DNA of 64,000 nucleotides. Source: Gallionella sp. Lineage in GTDB: Bacteria > Pseudomonadota > Gammaproteobacteria > Burkholderiales > Gallionellaceae. The notes under the pieces are model-generated. The model saw only the letters and a program-made list of their open reading frames with translations. It was not told the DNA's origin and did not search any database. Where the stretch lies: the NCBI GenBank assembly GCA_030682375.1, contig JAUXOL010000016.1:18577-82576 (forward strand). Direction: 5' to 3'. Made by a program: the position numbers and the translations under genes. The number at the start of each line of letters is the position of its first letter. The first letter of the stretch is position 1. Positions 4,005 through 58,432 of this stretch are shown here, piece after piece.

Positions 4005-6533
4005 TTACTCGCGCAAGATGGCTAAGGGCGGCAGCGACGCCAGCCGCCTAGTGCCCAGCCATCCGGCCAGCATCACCGCCGCCATACCGCCGAACACGCC
4101 TATAGCCCAGATCGCCGCATTCGGCTGGTATGGAATCTCCAGCACGCGCAGCGCCAGCACCCAGCCCAGCAACACCGCCCCCGCCGCCGCGAACAAGCCG
4201 CTCAACCCGCCCAGCACGGCGAACTCCGACAAGTGCAGCCGCCGCAGATAACGCCCGTCCGCGCCCAGCGTGCGCAGCACCGCCGCCTCGAAACTGCGCT
4301 CGTCTTGCGTCGCCAGCAGCGCGGCATACAGCACCGCGAAGCCGGACAGCAGCGTGAACAGGAACACTGCCCCCATCACCTGCGTGATCTGGTCCATGAT
4401 GTGGCGCACCTGATCGATGATGGAACCGGTGTCTATCACCAGCACGTTGGGAAACTCGCGCGCCAGCAGGTCGCCCGCGCGAATGCTGTCCGGCGGCAGG
4501 TAGAAACTGGTCAGGTAGCTCGCCGGATAGTCGCGCAGCAACTCCGGCGTCGCGATCACGAAAAAATTCACCCGCATCGAGTCCCACTCCACCTTGCGCA
4601 AACTGCTCACTCGCGCCGTGAAACGGCTGCCGGCCACGTCGTAGGTCAGCGTGTCGCCCAAGTGGATGCCCAGCGTCTCGGCGATACCCTCCTCGACCGA
4701 CAACTCCCCATTCGCCCCCGCAGTCCACCACTTGCCGCCGACCAGCTTGTTCCACTCCGGCATCTGCTCCATGTACGACAGATTGAACTCGCGCTCCACC
4801 AGACGGCTCGCGCGCGTATCGGCGTAGCTGTCGCCGCTGACCGGCCTGTCGTTGATTGCGACCAACCTACCGCGCACCATCGGCTGCAACTCCGGCGGCG
4901 GCAGCTTCTCGCGCGCAAAGAAATCGACCAGCGCCTGCTGCTGGTGCGGCTGGATGTTCACGACGAAACGATTGGGCGTGTCCGGCGGCAGCCTGTCCTG
5001 CCAGCCCTGCAGCAGGTCGGCGCGCACCAGCGTCAGCAGCAGCAAAGCCATGCCGCCCAGCGCCAGCGCGACGACCTGCAGCGCATTGCTGCGCCCGTGC
5101 CGCACCAGGTTGTTCACCGCATGCCGCCAGTGGCTGCCGAGATAGGGGAAATAGCGCGCCAGCCCATGCAGCATCAACCAGGCCAGGCCGCCGAACACCA
5201 CCAGTCCGGCGAGCAGGCCGCCCAGCATCGCCAACCCCAGCTTGGCCGAACCCGAGTGCCACAGGAACAGTCCTGCCAGCACCAGCAGCGCGACGCCATA
5301 GGCCAGCACGGTGTTCGGCTGCGGCGCGCCCAACTCGCGGCGCAGCACGCGCAACGGCGACACCCGGCGCAGTTGCAGCAGCGGCAGGAAGCCGAAGCCC
5401 AGCAGCAGCGCGAAACCGCTGACCGCAGCCTTCAGCGCGGGCAGCAGCGAAGGCTGCGGCAGCGCCGCATCGCGCATCGTTTCGATGAAGGAGATCAGCA
5501 TCGCCTGCGTGACGTAGCCCAGCAGACAACCGGCCAGCACCGCAAAGAAACCGAGCAGCAGGAACTGGTACAGGAACAGCCGCAGCACCTGAGCCTGCTG
5601 CGCGCCCAGACAGCGCATCACCGCGCAGCCATCGAGATGGCGCTGCACGAAACGCCGCGCCGCCAGCATGATCGCAGCTCCCGCGAGGATCGCCGCGGTC
5701 AGTGCCGCGAGGCCGAGGAAATGCTCGGCGCGCTCCAGCGCGCTACGTATCTCGGGCCGCGCGTCGCGCACGTCCTCCAGCCTCTCGTTGCCGGACAGCT
5801 TCGGCTTGAGTTCATCGCGCAGCGCGGTGACCTGCTGCGCCTCGCCCGCGACCATCAGCCGGTAGGTGATGCGGCTGCCCTCCTGCAGCAGCCCGGTCGC
5901 CGCGAGGTCCTGCGCGTTCATCAGCACGCGCGGCGCGAAGCTGGAGAAACCGATGGACTGGTCGATGTCCTTCACCACCCGCGCCGCGACGACGAAACGC
6001 ATCGCGCCTATGCCCACCTCGTCGCCGACCTGCAGGTCGAGCCGGCGCAGCAGCCGCTCGTCCGCCCACACCGTGCCACGCAATGGAATCGATCCAGCCG
6101 CCCCCTCCCCCTCGATGGGGGAGGGTTGGGGAGAGGGTGAAAACGTCGAATTCCCCCCAACCCCATTCCCTAAATCAATCGCTATCTTCCCCCGCAGCGG
6201 ATACCCCTCCTCCACCGCCTGCATTTCCGACAGCAACGCCTGCTCGCGCGACGACACCATGCTCGGAAAACTGCGGCTCTCGACCGCGCGCAACCCGCGC
6301 GCCTCGGCGCTCTTTCGATAGGCGGGAGGCAGCGGCCGCGTCGAGGTGATGCGCAAGTCCGCCCCGATCAGGCTGGTCGCCTCCTGCTGCAACGCCTGCC
6401 GCACGCGGTCGGCGAACATGCCGACCGTCGCGAGGCTGCCCACCGCCAGCACCAGCGCCAGCAACAGCACGCGCCACTCCCCGGCCCGCCAGTCGCGGCG
6501 CAACAGGTTGAGGGAGAGGCGGAGGAGATTCAT
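4005..6533 (-). CDS. ybbP: FtsX-family ABC permease, YbbP-like
   Basis: 842 aa, two multi-TM halves, PNRFVVNIQ and WDSMRVNFFVI motifs; next to ABC ATPase and tesA. Confidence 0.85.
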   Translation of the reverse strand: MNLLRLSLNLLRRDWRAGEWRVLLLALVLAVGSLATVGMFADRVRQALQQEATSLIGADLRITSTRPLPPAYRKSAEARGLRAVESRSFPSMVSSREQALLSEMQAVEEGYPLRGKIAIDLGNGVGGNSTFSPSPQPSPIEGEGAAGSIPLRGTVWADERLLRRLDLQVGDEVGIGAMRFVVAARVVKDIDQSIGFSSFAPRVLMNAQDLAATGLLQEGSRITYRLMVAGEAQQVTALRDELKPKLSGNERLEDVRDARPEIRSALERAEHFLGLAALTAAILAGAAIMLAARRFVQRHLDGCAVMRCLGAQQAQVLRLFLYQFLLLGFFAVLAGCLLGYVTQAMLISFIETMRDAALPQPSLLPALKAAVSGFALLLGFGFLPLLQLRRVSPLRVLRRELGAPQPNTVLAYGVALLVLAGLFLWHSGSAKLGLAMLGGLLAGLVVFGGLAWLMLHGLARYFPYLGSHWRHAVNNLVRHGRSNALQVVALALGGMALLLLTLVRADLLQGWQDRLPPDTPNRFVVNIQPHQQQALVDFFAREKLPPPELQPMVRGRLVAINDRPVSGDSYADTRASRLVEREFNLSYMEQMPEWNKLVGGKWWTAGANGELSVEEGIAETLGIHLGDTLTYDVAGSRFTARVSSLRKVEWDSMRVNFFVIATPELLRDYPASYLTSFYLPPDSIRAGDLLAREFPNVLVIDTGSIIDQVRHIMDQITQVMGAVFLFTLLSGFAVLYAALLATQDERSFEAAVLRTLGADGRYLRRLHLSEFAVLGGLSGLFAAAGAVLLGWVLALRVLEIPYQPNAAIWAIGVFGGMAAVMLAGWLGTRRLASLPPLAILRE
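6088..6172 (-). repeat. C/G-rich palindromic repeat inserted in frame in ybbP
   Basis: Minus strand CCCTCTCCCCAACCCTCCCCATCGAGGGGGAGGGG encodes SPSPQPSPIEGEG between YPLRG and GTVW. Confidence 0.65.
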
Positions 6534-7062: not shown

Positions 7063-7728
7063 TTACACCACCCTCCCCGCCTCCAGCCTCAACTGCCTGC
7101 CGCAGCGCCTCGCCAGCGCCTCGTCGTGGGTGACGAGGATCAGCGTCGTGCCCTGCGCGCGGTTGAGTTCCAGCATCAATTCGATAACCTGTGAACCCGT
7201 CGCCGCATCGAGGTTGCCGGTGGGTTCGTCGGCGAACAGAATCTTGGGGCGGGTGACGAAGGCGCGGGCGAGTGCGACGCGCTGCTGTTCTCCGCCGGAG
7301 AGGTGTTTGGGCAGGTGGTGCATGCGCTCGGTCAGCCCAACCTGGCGCAGCGAGTCGGCGGCGCGCTCGTGCGCGTCGGATGCGCCTTGCAGTTCCAGCG
7401 GCAGCATCACGTTTTCCAGCGCGCTCAAGGCGGGCAGCAGCTGGAACGACTGGAACACGAAGCCTGCCGCGGCGCCCCGCAGCCTTGCGCGTCCGTCTTC
7501 GTCCAGCGCAAACAGGTCCGCGCCGGCCAAGTGCACGCTGCCGCTGCTGGGTACGTCCAGCCCGGCCAGGAGGCCCAGCAGCGTAGACTTGCCGGAACCG
7601 GACGCGCCGAGGATCGCGAGGCTCTCGCCCGCCTCGACCGCGAAACTCACCTCGTGCAGGATGGTCAGCGGCTGGTCGCCGCTCTGCACTTGCTTGCCCA
7701 ATCCAACTGCCTGCACAATCGCTGCCAT
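7063..7728 (-). CDS. ybbA: ABC transporter ATP-binding protein, YbbA-like
   Basis: GASGSGKST, LSGGEQQRVALARA, ILFADEPTGNLD. Confidence 0.9.
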   Translation of the reverse strand: MAAIVQAVGLGKQVQSGDQPLTILHEVSFAVEAGESLAILGASGSGKSTLLGLLAGLDVPSSGSVHLAGADLFALDEDGRARLRGAAAGFVFQSFQLLPALSALENVMLPLELQGASDAHERAADSLRQVGLTERMHHLPKHLSGGEQQRVALARAFVTRPKILFADEPTGNLDAATGSQVIELMLELNRAQGTTLILVTHDEALARRCGRQLRLEAGRVV

Positions 7729-8545
7729 GAAAAATCCATTTTCGACAATGTTTGCTGGAAGCCCTCTCCCCTTCGATACGCCCGCTGTGCGGGCTACTCA
7801 GGGCGAACGGCCTGCTATTGCTCCGTTCGTGCTGATAACCAACCACTTGGCAACCGTTTTCTGGTTGCTTAGTGGGCTGGCTAGTTGCATCACCAGTGCC
7901 TTGCGCAGCAAGGCGTATCGAAGCATGAGCGGAGCGGGAACCACAACAATAAATTTTGTTTTGTTAATCGTAGCACTGGGTCTGCCCTGCACCGCCCACG
8001 CCGCGAAGAACATCCTAGTGTTCGGCGACAGTCTATCAGCCGGATACGGGATCGCAGTAGCGGAAAGTTGGCCGGCGCTGTTGCAGCAGGAACTGGTACG
8101 CAACGGCTCGAAATACCGCGTGGTCAACGCCAGCATCAGCGGCGAAACCACGCTGGGCGGACGGCAGCGCATCGCCCAGGCATTGCAGCAGCATCGCCCG
8201 GCGGTGGTGGTGATCGAGTTAGGCGCGAACGACGGGCTGCGCGGTTACGGCACGGCGGACATCGCGGCGAATCTGGGCGAGATCGTCGCCGCCGCGCAAC
8301 GGGTGCATGCCCGCGTGCTGCTGGTCGGCATGCGCTTGCCGCCGAACTACGGCGAGCCTTACGTCACGCAGTTCCGCAATCTCTATCCGCGCCTCGCGGA
8401 GAAACACCGCGTCAGGCTGATGCCGTTCCTGCTGGAAGGCGTGCCGCCGGAACAGTTCCAGCCGGACAACCTGCATCCGACCGCTGCGGCGCAACCGCTG
8501 CTGATGCGGAACGTGCTGAAGACGTTGAAACCGCTGCTGCGCTGA
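7727..8545 (+). CDS. tesA: GDSL arylesterase/acyl-CoA thioesterase I, TesA-like (start 7727 or 7925)
   Basis: VFGDSLSAGYG, NASISGET, ELGANDG, DNLHP; frame stays open from ATG 7727 through a repeat element. Confidence 0.88.
   Translation: MKNPFSTMFAGSPLPFDTPAVRATQGERPAIAPFVLITNHLATVFWLLSGLASCITSALRSKAYRSMSGAGTTTINFVLLIVALGLPCTAHAAKNILVFGDSLSAGYGIAVAESWPALLQQELVRNGSKYRVVNASISGETTLGGRQRIAQALQQHRPAVVVIELGANDGLRGYGTADIAANLGEIVAAAQRVHARVLLVGMRLPPNYGEPYVTQFRNLYPRLAEKHRVRLMPFLLEGVPPEQFQPDNLHPTAAAQPLLMRNVLKTLKPLLR
7769..7928 (+). repeat. Two-arm palindromic repeat (CCCTTCG...GAACGG / CCGTTCG...CATGA) carrying a nested 60-nt hairpin
   Basis: Arms match, in inverted orientation, the element at 58266-58432. 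Confidence 0.8.
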
Positions 8546-48536: not shown

Positions 48537-49319
48537 CTACGCGACGACCAGCGAACGCTGCCGAACCGCCTCGAACAGGCAGACCGCGGTCGCGGCGGCC
48601 GCGTTCAGCGACTCGACCTTGCCGGGCATCGGTATCGTGAAACGCCGTGTAGCCGCGTCCTGCAAGGCTTTGGACAGCCCTGCCCCCTCGTTGCCGACCG
48701 CAAAGGCGAGATCGCCGCCGAGGTCGCAATCGTACAGCCCGGCGTCGGCCTGCAACGAAGCCGCGAACACGGTTCCCGGCAGCGTCGCCGCGACCGCCAA
48801 CAAGTCCGATGCCTCGTAGATGGATAGCGCGAAATGCCCGCCCATCGCCGCGCGCAACACCCGAGGCGACCAGGCGTCGGCGCAGCCCTTGGACAGATAC
48901 ACCGCATCGCAGCCCGCCGCCGCCGCCGAGCGCAGCATCGAACCGAGGTTGCCCGGGTCCTGAATGTCTTCCAGCAACAACGCGAAGCGGCTGTCGGCCG
49001 GCAGCGGCTGCGGGATATCGACCAGCGCGAGTATGCCGGTCGGCGTCTTCAGCTCGGTGAGTTCGGCGAACAGCTTGTCGTCCAGCTGCGTCATAGCCAC
49101 GCCGGAGGCTCGCTTCAGCAAGGCCTCGACCTCATCGTCCTTCAGCGCCGCACTGTTCAGCAGGATATTCAGCGGCAGCTTGCCCGAATCCAGATACGCC
49201 GCAAGGAGATGCGTTCCATCCAGCAGCGTCTGCCCGGCCTTGCCGCGCTGACGCGCCGAACCGGCGAGTTTGACGAGTTCTTTAAAAAAGGGATTGTCGT
49301 GCGACTGGATCAGTTTCAT
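48537..49319 (-). CDS. TrmH/SpoU family RNA methyltransferase
   Basis: IQDPGNLGSMLRSA, VGNEGAGL, ESLNAAAA. Confidence 0.95.
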   Translation of the reverse strand: MKLIQSHDNPFFKELVKLAGSARQRGKAGQTLLDGTHLLAAYLDSGKLPLNILLNSAALKDDEVEALLKRASGVAMTQLDDKLFAELTELKTPTGILALVDIPQPLPADSRFALLLEDIQDPGNLGSMLRSAAAAGCDAVYLSKGCADAWSPRVLRAAMGGHFALSIYEASDLLAVAATLPGTVFAASLQADAGLYDCDLGGDLAFAVGNEGAGLSKALQDAATRRFTIPMPGKVESLNAAAATAVCLFEAVRQRSLVVA

Positions 49320-49337
49320 TGCTTGTCATCTTTCTCT

Positions 49338-49408
49338 GTAGGGGCGCGATTTATCGCGCCCGATTTCATCGCCCCATCGTCATTGGGCGCGATAAATCGC
49401 GCCCCAAC
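49338..49408. repeat. Family-1 REP doublet inside the RAYT C-terminus
   Basis: GTAGGGGCGCGATTTATCGCGCCC ... GGGCGCGATAAATCGCGCCCCAAC. Confidence 0.9.
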
Positions 49409-49610
49409 GGGGGCATCTGGATTTTCGCGGTCGATTGCCCATTGCGCTGGATTATTGGCAATGTACTCGCGAATCTCCTGCAGCGAGGATTCGCTGCGGA
49501 TGATGTGCTCGTAATAATTGCGCTGCCAAATCGATACGCTTTGCATACCGCGCAACCTATTAATGCCATGAGTACAACGCGCCTTGTATGCCCGGACGAT
49601 ATCCCCAACC

Positions 49611-49634
49611 GTAGGGGCGCGATTCATCGCGCCC
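49611..49634. repeat. Single family-1 REP inside the RAYT coding region
   Basis: GTAGGGGCGCGATTCATCGCGCCC encodes GAMNRAPT on the minus strand. Confidence 0.9.
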
Positions 49635-49938
49635 AAATCGTTCAGCACCACAACACCATGAACATGATTCGGCATCACCACGAACGCATCCAGTTCGATA
49701 CCCGAAAAATATTCAGGCAATTGATCCCAAAGACGCTGCACCAAATGTCCGGCCTCGTTCAACCTCACGACATCACCATCCACCGCACCGAATAAACAGG
49801 CCCGTTCATGGGCGCACAATGTGACGAAATACGCCCCAGCCTGCGAATAATCGTAACCGCGCAGACGGATTGAACGGCGATGGTGAATGCAAGGATCGAA
49901 TGATGGCGTATCGGGCATGCTAAATCGCACAGGGGGTT

Positions 49939-49962
49939 GGGCGTGATGAATCACGCCCCTAC
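49939..49962. repeat. Family-1 REP variant upstream of the RAYT
   Basis: GGGCGTGATGAATCACGCCCCTAC; compensatory C-G to T-A stem change. Confidence 0.85.
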
Positions 49963-50005
49963 GGATGCTGGGATTCGCATTTCCATGTGCAAGACATTCC
50001 TCCTT

Positions 50006-50093
50006 GTAGGGGCGCGATTCATCGCGCCCGGATTCGTGAATACATCAATTTGCGTATCGTGATTATTATGGGCGCGATAAATCGCGCCCCTAC
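50006..50093. repeat. Family-1 REP doublet between scpB and the RAYT
   Basis: GTAGGGGCGCGATTCATCGCGCCC ... GGGCGCGATAAATCGCGCCCCTAC. Confidence 0.92.
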
Positions 50094-50096
50094 GGT

Positions 50097-50897
50097 TCAC
50101 GATCGGTCGGTCGCCGCGTCGTCAGGACCGAAAGGCCAACCTTCGGGGGCATCCGTCTCCGCATGCGGCAGGCTAGGGATCGGCACCGAGGCGGATGCCG
50201 GTATCGCGACGGATTCGGGTTCCGCCATCTGCTCAGGAGCAGGCGCGGGCGCGGCTTCGATCCTTGCTTCCTGCTCCAGCAGCGAACCTATCTCCTGCAG
50301 CGACGGCAGATCGCTCAACATGCGCAGATTCAGGTCGTCCAGCATCTGCTTCGTGGTCGCGAACAGCTCCGGCTTGCCGGGCGCATCGCGGGTGCCGACG
50401 ACCTCGACCCAGCCGCGCGCCTCCAGTGTTTTCAATATCTGCGATGACACCGCGACGCCGCGGATTTCCTCGATGTCGCCGCGCGTGACCGGCTGGTGGT
50501 AGGCGATAATCGCCAGCGTCTCCAGCACCGCGCGCGAATAGCGCGGCGGCTTCTGGGGATTCAGGCGATCGAGGTATTGCTGCATCTCGGGCCTGGCGCG
50601 GAAGCGCCAACCGCTGGCGACGCGAGTCAGTTCGACGCCGCGCCTCTGCCAGTCCAGCGCCAGCGATTCGAGCAAGGCTTCCATCTGACGAGTGTCCAGC
50701 GACACGTCGCTGAGCTTCTTCAGTTCGGATACCGACAACGGTTCGGTCGTGGTCAGCAGCGCGGTTTCGAGCACGATCTTGAACTGCTCGGTGTTCATCT
50801 TCCCGCCGAACAGATCGACGCTGATCGCGCTGGCATCATCACCCCCTGCGGGAGCGACGTCACTCTGCTGCTTCAATGGCTCGGCTTGTTCGGACAT
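50097..50897 (-). CDS. scpB: SMC-Scp complex subunit ScpB
   Basis: [34 protein letters not shown]. Confidence 0.95.
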
Positions 50898-58265: not shown

Positions 58266-58432
58266 TCATGGTTCGATACACCTTGCTACGCAAGGCACTC
58301 ACCACGAACGGAGTGGAGAGCATTCGAATAAATGGCCCGTTCGCCCTGATAACCAGCGACTTGCCAGCTTGCTGGCTTAGTCGAATGGCTAGTAGCTTTA
58401 TCAGGAGCCCGCATCGCGGGCGTATCGAAGGG
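58266..58432 (-). repeat. Second copy of the two-arm repeat with a nested 54-nt hairpin
   Basis: TCATGGTTCG...GAACGG / CCGTTCGCCCTGA[insert]...TCGAAGGG; inverted relative to 7769-7928. Confidence 0.8.

Follow-up and report, generated by a model that had tools for sequence, protein, structure and literature searches.

A 54/60-nucleotide hairpin of Gallionellaceae that probably moves, entering DNA at N^AG

The window analysed here, a stretch of 64,000 nucleotides (nt) from Gallionella sp. (GenBank assembly GCA_030682375.1, contig JAUXOL010000016.1, positions 18,577 to 82,576), holds two homologous hairpins of 60 and 54 nt, each of which interrupts an arm of a larger repeat, H1. We find that they belong to a family of tiny hairpins that are hosted by at least six unrelated repeat families, by unique DNA, by genes and by other copies of the element itself. 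What stays constant among them is the short sequence N^AG (CT^ on the opposite strand; ^ marks the insertion point throughout), rather than the identity of the host repeat. That the element is mobile and inserts exactly at N^AG appears very probable. We read it, at a probability of roughly 0.7, as a miniature mobile element of Gallionellaceae whose movement, as single-stranded DNA, depends in trans on an HUH-type enzyme, most plausibly a RAYT (REP-associated Y1) enzyme.

Results

H1 is a two-arm repeat that is present in the window as two inverted copies, A and B (Table 1), between which the inverted pairs I1 and I5 are 86-90% complementary. The 60-nt insert of copy A splits the arm CCGTTCGTGCTG^AGTGCCTTGCG, which stands unsplit in copy B as CCGTTCGTGGTGAGTGCCTTGCG, and the 54-nt insert of copy B splits the arm CCGTTCGCCCTG^AGGAGCCCGC, which stands unsplit in copy A as CCGTTCGCCCTGAGTAGCCC. 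Both inserts abut exactly CCGTTCGnnCTG^AG, in opposite arms of the two inverted copies; the two placements listed for copy A are equivalent, since the element starts with A and A comes next. The likeness of the two inserts is far beyond chance, as judged by their nhmmer E-values in the 2.78-Mb genome, and they represent different sub-lineages, a long-loop one in A (AACCAC..GTGGG) and a short-loop one in B (AGCGAC..GTCGA). Near-identical copies of the former are present in several other genomes, and copy B, taken together with the flanking host arm (96 nt), is 96% identical to C15:150738-150833. As DNA both fold into the same imperfect hairpin, at -12.5 (A) and -10.8 kcal/mol (B), with inner stems that are unlike (GCAACC/GGTTGC versus GCCAG/CTGGC) and with a compensatory change of the second stem (CCACT/AGTGG versus CGACT/AGTCG). 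The original prediction had proposed that two homologous hairpins, alike in fold, different in their inner stems and divisible by three in length, had independently interrupted inverted copies of one repeat, the uninterrupted form of each arm being kept in the other copy. The sequence of both regions bears this out, and the opposite arms and the different sub-lineages speak for independent insertions.

H1 itself consists, from the outside, of a closing stem (CTTCGATAC/GTATCGAAG) and two small variable hairpins, with a central hairpin CAGGGCGAACGG..CCGTTCGYSCTG. In copy A the order is a small hairpin (GCCCGC..GCGGGC), the central hairpin (CAGGGCGAACGG..CCGTTCGTGCTG), the element and a second small hairpin (GCCTTGC..GCAAGGC), and the complete copy folds as single-stranded DNA at -44.6 kcal/mol (z -7.1). 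Copy B is located between two converging genes, the ends of which we name MsrA-like and low-molecular-weight phosphatase-like from reading their translations.

Table 1. Positions in the window of the two hairpin elements, their host repeats and the candidate enzyme
Feature	Position	Strand	Sequence and basis
Hairpin element, copy A, long-loop sub-lineage, 60 nt	7835-7894 (or 7836-7895)	+	ATAACCAACCACTTGGCAACCGTTTTCTGGTTGCTTAGTGGGCTGGCTAGTTGCATCACC; nhmmer E 2e-15; DNA fold z -3.5
Hairpin element, copy B, short-loop sub-lineage, 54 nt	58349-58402 (or 58350-58403)	+	ATAACCAGCGACTTGCCAGCTTGCTGGCTTAGTCGAATGGCTAGTAGCTTTATC; nhmmer E 3e-17; DNA fold z -3.1
Left junction of copy A, ..CTG^ATAACC	7833-7836		Compared with the unsplit arm in copy B
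Right junction of copy A, ..CACC^AGT, AG belonging to the host	7893-7897		Compared with the unsplit arm; flank tallies
Host repeat H1, copy A	7769-7928	+	Inverted-repeat pairs, fold, comparison of the tesA locus
Host repeat H1, copy B, inverted relative to A	58266-58432	-	Inverted-repeat pairs, sequence reading
Y1_Tnp (RAYT) domain, candidate trans-acting enzyme	49451-49702	-	Flanked by its own REPs (GTAGGGGCGCGATTCATCGCGCCC), not by the element

The sequence flanking the element was tallied for 139 distinct copies of the type found in the window (subfamily 1) that have both ends. The base 3' of the element is A in 139 of 139, followed by G in 121 (87%) and by A in 18, under an extraction pattern that itself demanded AA or AG; the nhmmer hits without that filter agree, save for a few truncated copies. 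The base on the 5' side is G in 63, C in 50, T in 25 and A in a single copy, and G or C predominates at positions -3 and -4 (about 90%). In terms of the opposite strand, each insertion lies immediately 3' of CT or TT, and often immediately 5' of a GC-rich hairpin or within a hairpin loop. Comparison with unoccupied paralogous sites demonstrates that the AG is the target's and that nothing is duplicated, leaving the element with the ends NATAACC and GTTYCATC. On the 5' side of the hairpin stands ATAA (plus strand) or CNAC (other strand), and GTAG occurs on the 3' side of the hairpin alone, where 66 of the 139 copies have it and the remainder have GTTG, GTGG or GTCG.

The copies are distributed over a wide range of contexts, which we assigned by simple patterns. 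H2, a second repeat, holds 41 of the 139 (29%), H1-type repeats hold 18 at three different sites, at least 12 lie inside another copy of the element, 6 are at GGGTGCCCGGCC^AAAAG hairpins, 4 are in a CACAGAG repeat and 2 in H3, while the 56 assigned to other repeats or unique sequence still include some nested and repeat-borne copies. The idea that the element targets one repeat family site-specifically must thus be given up, as H1 types account for only about 13% of the distinct copies. The empty forms read CGTTCGnnCTG^AG for H1, TTCGAC^AAGCTCAGG for the related type H1b, CCCGCTTGCGGG^AGAGGG for H2 and TCGCGGGC^AGGGCCCGCTCCTAC for H3, a GTAG-type REP, and filled/empty paralogous sites in the genome number 5/27 for H1, 2/4 for H1b and 2/8 for H3. 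Self-nesting takes place at two fixed internal sites, ..ATGGCT^AGTAG.. and ..GCTT^AGTCG.., yielding stacked hairpins followed by stacked tails. N^AG-type sites are abundant both in REP-like palindromes and within the element (GGCT^AGTAG, GCTT^AGTCG), which explains its nesting in repeats as well as in itself. Reconstructed empty sites moreover fold more strongly than control N^AG sites (median -9.05 versus -7.2 kcal/mol, p 4e-7), and a perfect stem of at least 5 base pairs ending at most 3 nt from the site accompanies 21% of them versus 8% of the controls. On the upstream side the 3' foot of a hairpin is accordingly over-represented, if to a moderate degree.

Several further repeats were encountered in the course of this survey. 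At L068:4090-4215 the nesting reaches three levels, with an outer element that holds a copy at the inner ..GCTT^AGT site and, additionally, an unrelated 20-nt palindrome in its inner loop. The window carries an H2-type C/G-run palindrome at 6088-6172, in frame in a ybbP-like permease gene (..SPSPQPSPIEGEGAAG..). Repeats of the dRS3/NTS type, as in Neisseria (GTCATTCCCGCGAAAGCGGGAATCCAG), are present in Gallionellaceae (loci L121, L124 and L007, and C2:238455-238660), and one of them carries the element after the CT of its loop.

Direct comparison of filled and empty sites between species was made by locating, in this genome (labelled G000), the sequences that flank copies found elsewhere. Locus L108 reads GCGTC^element^AGTACGG, with GCGTCAGTATCG as the empty counterpart here; L018 reads, on the other strand, CCTCT^element^CCCGCAAGCGGG, and the H2 copy of this genome lacks the element; L007 reads CCCGCCT^element^GCGCGGGAATGAC, the hairpin of this genome again being without it; and L074 provides another exact contrast. 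The most informative site is in mutS. In this genome the gene holds an H1b host together with the element, CCTTCGAC^element^AAGCTCAGG (also given as CCTTCGAC^element^AAGCTCAGGACGAACGG). Two genomes of the same genus have an H1b host at the same place, empty, as CCTTCGAC^GAGCTCAGG (G013) and CCTTCGAC^ATGCTCAGG (G024), and three further genomes (G011, G017 and G010) have neither host repeat nor element. Such an order, with most relatives lacking the host, two having the host only and one having both, fits stepwise insertion. No target duplication distinguishes filled from empty sites. The direction of change at any single site is taken from the overall pattern, and the orthologous empty sites agree with the precise insertion that had been foreseen.

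The mutS position in domain III (C14:54946-55146; loci L166-L188) is in itself a hot spot of repeat insertion. Depending on the species it contains H1b with or without the hairpin, H2 with an oppositely oriented hairpin, REP doublets (GTAGGTCGGGTT or GTAGGGTGGGCAC), or nothing. Another position, the orthologous site ..GCGCAACGCCGC^AGA.. (C5:507173-507235, L049:3141 and L041:3820), is filled in three species with unlike sub-lineages (long versus short GCCCGC loop), which suggests either repeated insertion or the replacement of one copy by another.

The whole element is one imperfect hairpin with conserved bulges, the arms of which pair along the full length. Its ends are conserved (5' ATAACCAGCGACTT, 3' YTAGTCGAATGGCTAGTAGTTYCATC), and between them an inner stem-loop varies freely yet is always paired; a tail of 11-12 nt separates the single hairpin from one end. 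Covariation was assessed in 85 distinct sequences of the 60-nt class and 31 of the 54-nt class. Stem positions change on both sides, the second stem showing CG/TA and GC/CG and the inner stem as many as five kinds of pair at a position. The internal loop, judged by eye from the listed copies, seems to keep a mismatch of two purines (G.A or A.G) and an additional A. Conserved hairpin irregularities are read by hairpin-binding DNA enzymes such as IS608 TnpA, RAYT and integron integrases (PMC8266576), and covariation alone cannot separate a DNA hairpin from an RNA. Identical inner types are found at unrelated sites. A templating of the inner stem-loop by the neighbouring host hairpin was considered and is unproven, several H2 sites being alike (CCCGCTTGCGGG in both) and many not. 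A hammerhead-like reading of the reverse strand (CTGATGA...) was rejected, as the heptamer is not conserved among the copies.

The element also enters genes. It measures 60 nt in 87 of the 139 copies, 54 in 34, 59 in 10, 57 in 5, 53 in 2 and 61 in one, so that the length is divisible by three in 126 (91%), and three of its six reading frames are free of stops. Being thus open and usually 54 or 60 nt long, genic copies survive as 18-20 extra residues. Three of them are found in this genome, all read in the same reverse-strand frame (..DGTTSHST..QVAGY..). The copy in nifN (C15:152216) is a 54-nt hairpin that together with an H2 repeat lies in frame (C15:152150-152330; ..LPLPNPDGTTSHSTKPASGQVAGYLPQAGEGANAK..), an insertion also present in another Gallionella genome (L047:5648). 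The copy in mutS (C14:55045) is placed within MutS domain III, ahead of domain IV, and the third is in frame in a gene for an FGGY sugar kinase (C13:123114). In each of the three proteins the insertion is spanned by Pfam domains. The proposal that the element preserves the reading frame thus has some ground in the lengths, the open frames, these three genes and copy A in tesA.

The first window copy lies at the start of tesA. In most relatives the start codons of ybbA (lolD-like) and tesA overlap as CCATG at this locus, with no repeat. Here, copy A and H1 keep the frame open from the ancestral tesA start (ATG at 7727) to another ATG, at 7925, supplied by H1, and they could form a 66-residue N-terminal extension or remain untranslated. 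The second ATG is provided by the conserved H1 end ..CGAAGCATGA. Different repeats are found just past the tesA ATG in this genome (window 7727-7927) and in at least G014, G022 and G023 (loci L121-L138).

A profile search of the genome with nhmmer recovered about 30 copies, dispersed over all contigs. Seventeen are of subfamily 1, ATAACCAGCGACTT-[inner stem-loop]-YTAGTCGAATGGCTAGTAGTTYCATC, and the rest form subfamily 2, with the same hairpin core and another tail (..TGGCYATGCAAAGCT), found either in the loop of a GTAG-type REP or in a 150-nt repeat. Outside this genome, a pattern scan with one genome per species returned at least 119 loci in public genomes, with titles that are almost all Gallionella, Gallionellaceae, Sideroxydans, Sideroxyarcus or Ferrigenium. 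Strict matches occur in four of four sampled genomes of the own family (7-21 each) and, among the roughly 60 other families of the order, in 2 of 147 genomes (1-2 each), with no match for a reversed-pattern control in the same order-wide count; genomes of the same genus have 0-37 each. The element is thus essentially confined to iron-oxidising Gallionellaceae. Searching a plasmid collection with the element gave no match, Rfam gave none up to E = 10, and a search of the published literature returned nothing matching. The genome contains neither orphan half-elements nor a longer version.

Subfamily 2 hairpins with the tail ATGCAAAGCT (C13:66037, 99789 and 209690; C15:114915; C5:381637; C2:319864) are positioned at the 3' end of the GTAG-type REP loop, with the apparent junctions GCGAT^ACCCATC or GCGCT^AACCCGAC, and the tail is partly complementary to the upstream REP loop sequence. 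Four copies exist of the roughly 150-nt repeat, GAAATCCGGGGCCGCGTAGCGGCA..[subfamily-2 hairpin]..CCGTGCGCCTTGCACTCAAGCCGCTCGCTACGG (C20:80640, C5:288196, C15:191464 and C15:178162; loci L196-L199), and one of them lies about 110 nt from the signal recognition particle RNA gene. An Rfam search with it gave no match.

The element encodes nothing, which, along with its length of 54/60 nt, sustains its description as tiny and non-autonomous. The genome has three RAYT genes, each flanked by its own GTAG REP family. The corresponding REPtrons, with three different such families, are at window 49316-50100, C5:284400-285080 and C15:48200-49060. The REP family GTAGGAGCGGGCCCTGCCCGCGA, which resembles the REPs flanking the RAYT at C5:284593, is itself a target of the element, after the CT in its loop. 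An HUH or GIY-YIG gene flanked by the element, which the original prediction had named as a possible partner, was not found on checking.

Other sources of the activity were rejected. An autonomous parent is not apparent: the stretches between adjacent copies share no recurrent gene, the genome has no longer version of the element, and what the pair of copies at around C15:150.8-152.2 kb encloses is nif genes. An origin of the IS110 or bridge-RNA type was dismissed since the genome is without a DEDD transposase and the element does not have the same core on both sides. One Y2 transposase gene of the IS91 type was recovered, with none of TAACCA, GGCTAGT or their complements within about 3 kb; this gene (C5:362912-364995) adjoins a tyrosine recombinase-like gene and may be part of a genomic island. 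As a GIY-YIG/Ssn partner, the only small GIY-YIG gene of the genome (C13:24491-24700) and a truncated copy were considered, neither of which is flanked by the element.

Discussion

Exact insertion without duplication, a two-base target, a hairpin-rich context, conserved mismatches and an 11-12-nt tail point to a single-strand route of the HUH type. The element would be taken as single-stranded DNA by a hairpin-recognising HUH-type enzyme acting in trans; it enters exactly, without duplication, immediately 5' of AG (less often AAG), equivalent to 3' of CT or TT on the other strand. By analogy with the IS200/IS605 family, which inserts 3' of a short target without duplication, the active strand may be CT^GATGAAACTAC-[hairpin]-T. 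The resident RAYTs would be the likeliest candidates, as enzymes cutting single-stranded DNA at CT beside hairpins; RAYTs are reported to do so 5' or 3' of the hairpin (PMC8266576), and a junction of CT (87%) or TT on one strand is compatible with that cleavage site. Taken by its parts, some single-strand HUH-like route is somewhat favoured, and a RAYT as the actual mover is a tentative assignment. It is doubtful that the hairpin is a complete transposable unit by itself, moved by a domesticated REP-associated Y1 or another single-strand enzyme and aimed at CT beside hairpins.

A number of observations weigh against this mechanism. None of the three RAYT genes of the genome is flanked by the element, and in 0.8 Mb of related, element-bearing loci RAYT genes do not lie near it, the one weak hit there being flanked by its own REP. 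Near-complete genomes without a Y1_Tnp hit still carry copies (3 in G012, 6 in G015). Element counts do correlate with Y1_Tnp hits over 25 genomes of the genus (Spearman 0.66, p 3e-4, not corrected for phylogeny), however RAYT-rich genomes could merely offer more REP targets. The GTAG found ahead of the hairpin in REPs is missing from the element, the other end of which would need a cut after AT, not CT. The excess of hairpins beside the insertion site is modest. Some single-strand transposons show a strand bias; orientation relative to GC skew is unbiased here (15 of 30 copies). Finally, gene conversion between host copies could explain part of the spread within families, for instance that of copy B and C15:150749.

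The last point leads to a broader alternative, in which the element inserted once, as a rare event, and gene conversion or homologous recombination via the arms thereafter copied the hairpin between host repeats. Copy B and C15:150749 do share the element and a host arm at 96% identity over 96 nt, the position is constant within each host family, and element sub-lineages correlate with host type. Such copying nevertheless does not account for the entry, always at N^AG, into at least six unrelated families, into unique sites and into coding sequence, nor for the self-nesting at defined sites and the differing sub-lineages of A and B. The orthologous mutS site, moreover, is filled here and empty in two species, with host copies that differ. 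We consider this explanation unlikely.

The hairpin could instead be the partner repeat of a single-strand nuclease of the Ssn type (GIY-YIG), or of some other, so far unrecognised, dedicated nuclease or recombinase. Ssn genes associate with hairpin repeats of 20-50 nt, the NTS repeats being the partners of SsnA, and the enzymes cut single-stranded DNA beside these hairpins (PMC11893778); NTS-like repeats (GTCATTCCCGCGAAAGCGGGAAT) are present in the genomes studied here. The element does not, however, flank the small GIY-YIG gene of this genome or its truncated copy, no gene recurs between element pairs, and Ssn enzymes are nucleases that are not known to insert DNA, which together make such a partnership improbable. 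Slightly poorer still are the prospects of a selected structured RNA or regulatory hairpin, kept for its function as a stabiliser, terminator or protein-binding motif. The strong covariation of the stems and the conserved internal loops would be congruent with it, yet covariation is equally expected of a DNA hairpin recognised by a protein. Rfam is silent even at permissive thresholds, the contexts are varied (diverging and converging genes, coding sequence, nested in repeats), and species differ by exact presence or absence. Least credible is an ancestral hairpin precisely deleted from the empty copies, the outcome that would have undone the original prediction: presence and absence alone give no direction at a single site, but one 54/60-nt unit would need to be ancestral to unrelated repeats, to genic sites and to itself, and the mutS pattern across relatives fits stepwise insertion.

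The element must also be placed among known systems, and it appears as a cross of several, while departing from the defining features of each sequence family. To REP/REPIN and RAYT it is related by being a short, abundant, vertically kept hairpin repeat in which a conserved bulge or mismatch matters, and the CT cut by the enzyme (PMC8266576) is the dinucleotide before most insertions on one strand. It differs in having no GTAG 5' of the palindrome, in not flanking any RAYT gene, and in being a single 54/60-nt hairpin with a 12-nt tail that is often inside genes. Clean insertion junctions and self-nesting, as found here, are not known to have been reported for REPs. With IS200/IS605 and their palindrome-associated derivatives it shares the lack of classical terminal inverted repeats and of target duplication, entry 3' of a fixed short motif, and imperfect hairpins that are recognised in single-stranded DNA; those insertion sequences, in contrast, have distinct left and right subterminal hairpins and a target of 4-5 nt, where the element has one hairpin and 2 nt, and no IS200-type transposase was found associated with it. 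A classical miniature inverted-repeat transposable element is distinguished by inverted repeats at the termini only and by target duplication, neither of which is seen.

Analogously, the small dispersed repeats SDR4-6 of Nostoc-type cyanobacteria, reportedly described by Elhai et al. in 2008, are very small, mobile-looking units without a coding partner that are often nested in repeats and extend hairpins. They are 21-27 nt long, come from another phylum and have no sequence similarity to the element, and to our knowledge a fixed CT/AG junction and in-frame genic copies are not their hallmark. The Rickettsia palindromic elements, said to have been described by Ogata et al. in 2000, likewise lie in frame within conserved genes, including housekeeping ones, and add a peptide, as is seen here for NifN, MutS and the FGGY kinase. 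These are about 100-150 base pairs and belong to an unrelated lineage, and we know of no description of a defined dinucleotide target or of self-nesting for them. The attC sites of integrons, finally, are also imperfect hairpins with conserved ends, extra-helical bases and a variable centre that are used in single-stranded form. The element differs from them in being without RYYYAAC/GTTRRRY cores, in being dispersed rather than in cassette arrays, and in a site that is AG, not GTT.

RAYTs cut and rejoin single-stranded DNA in vitro, and we know of no definition of their integration products in genomes. The spread of REP-type hairpins has been described as poorly understood (PMC8266576). If the hairpin is indeed a complete transposable unit of the kind outlined above, the hundreds of clean junctions, the self-nesting and the sites filled and empty at the species level would be the first natural record of the integration of a REP-type hairpin. 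It would then also supply essential proteins with insertions of 18-20 residues. The family in any event leaves an unusually clear trace, made up of a dinucleotide junction that is fixed and coincides with the cut site of RAYTs, the lack of duplication, internal targets revealed by nesting, and sites that are exactly filled or empty between species. Proteins such as MutS, NifN and a sugar kinase have repeatedly gained 18-20 residues from the element, and the mutS and tesA positions gather different repeats in different species. These findings have a bearing on the tolerance and acquisition of loop insertions by proteins, and on genome annotation in the Gallionellaceae.

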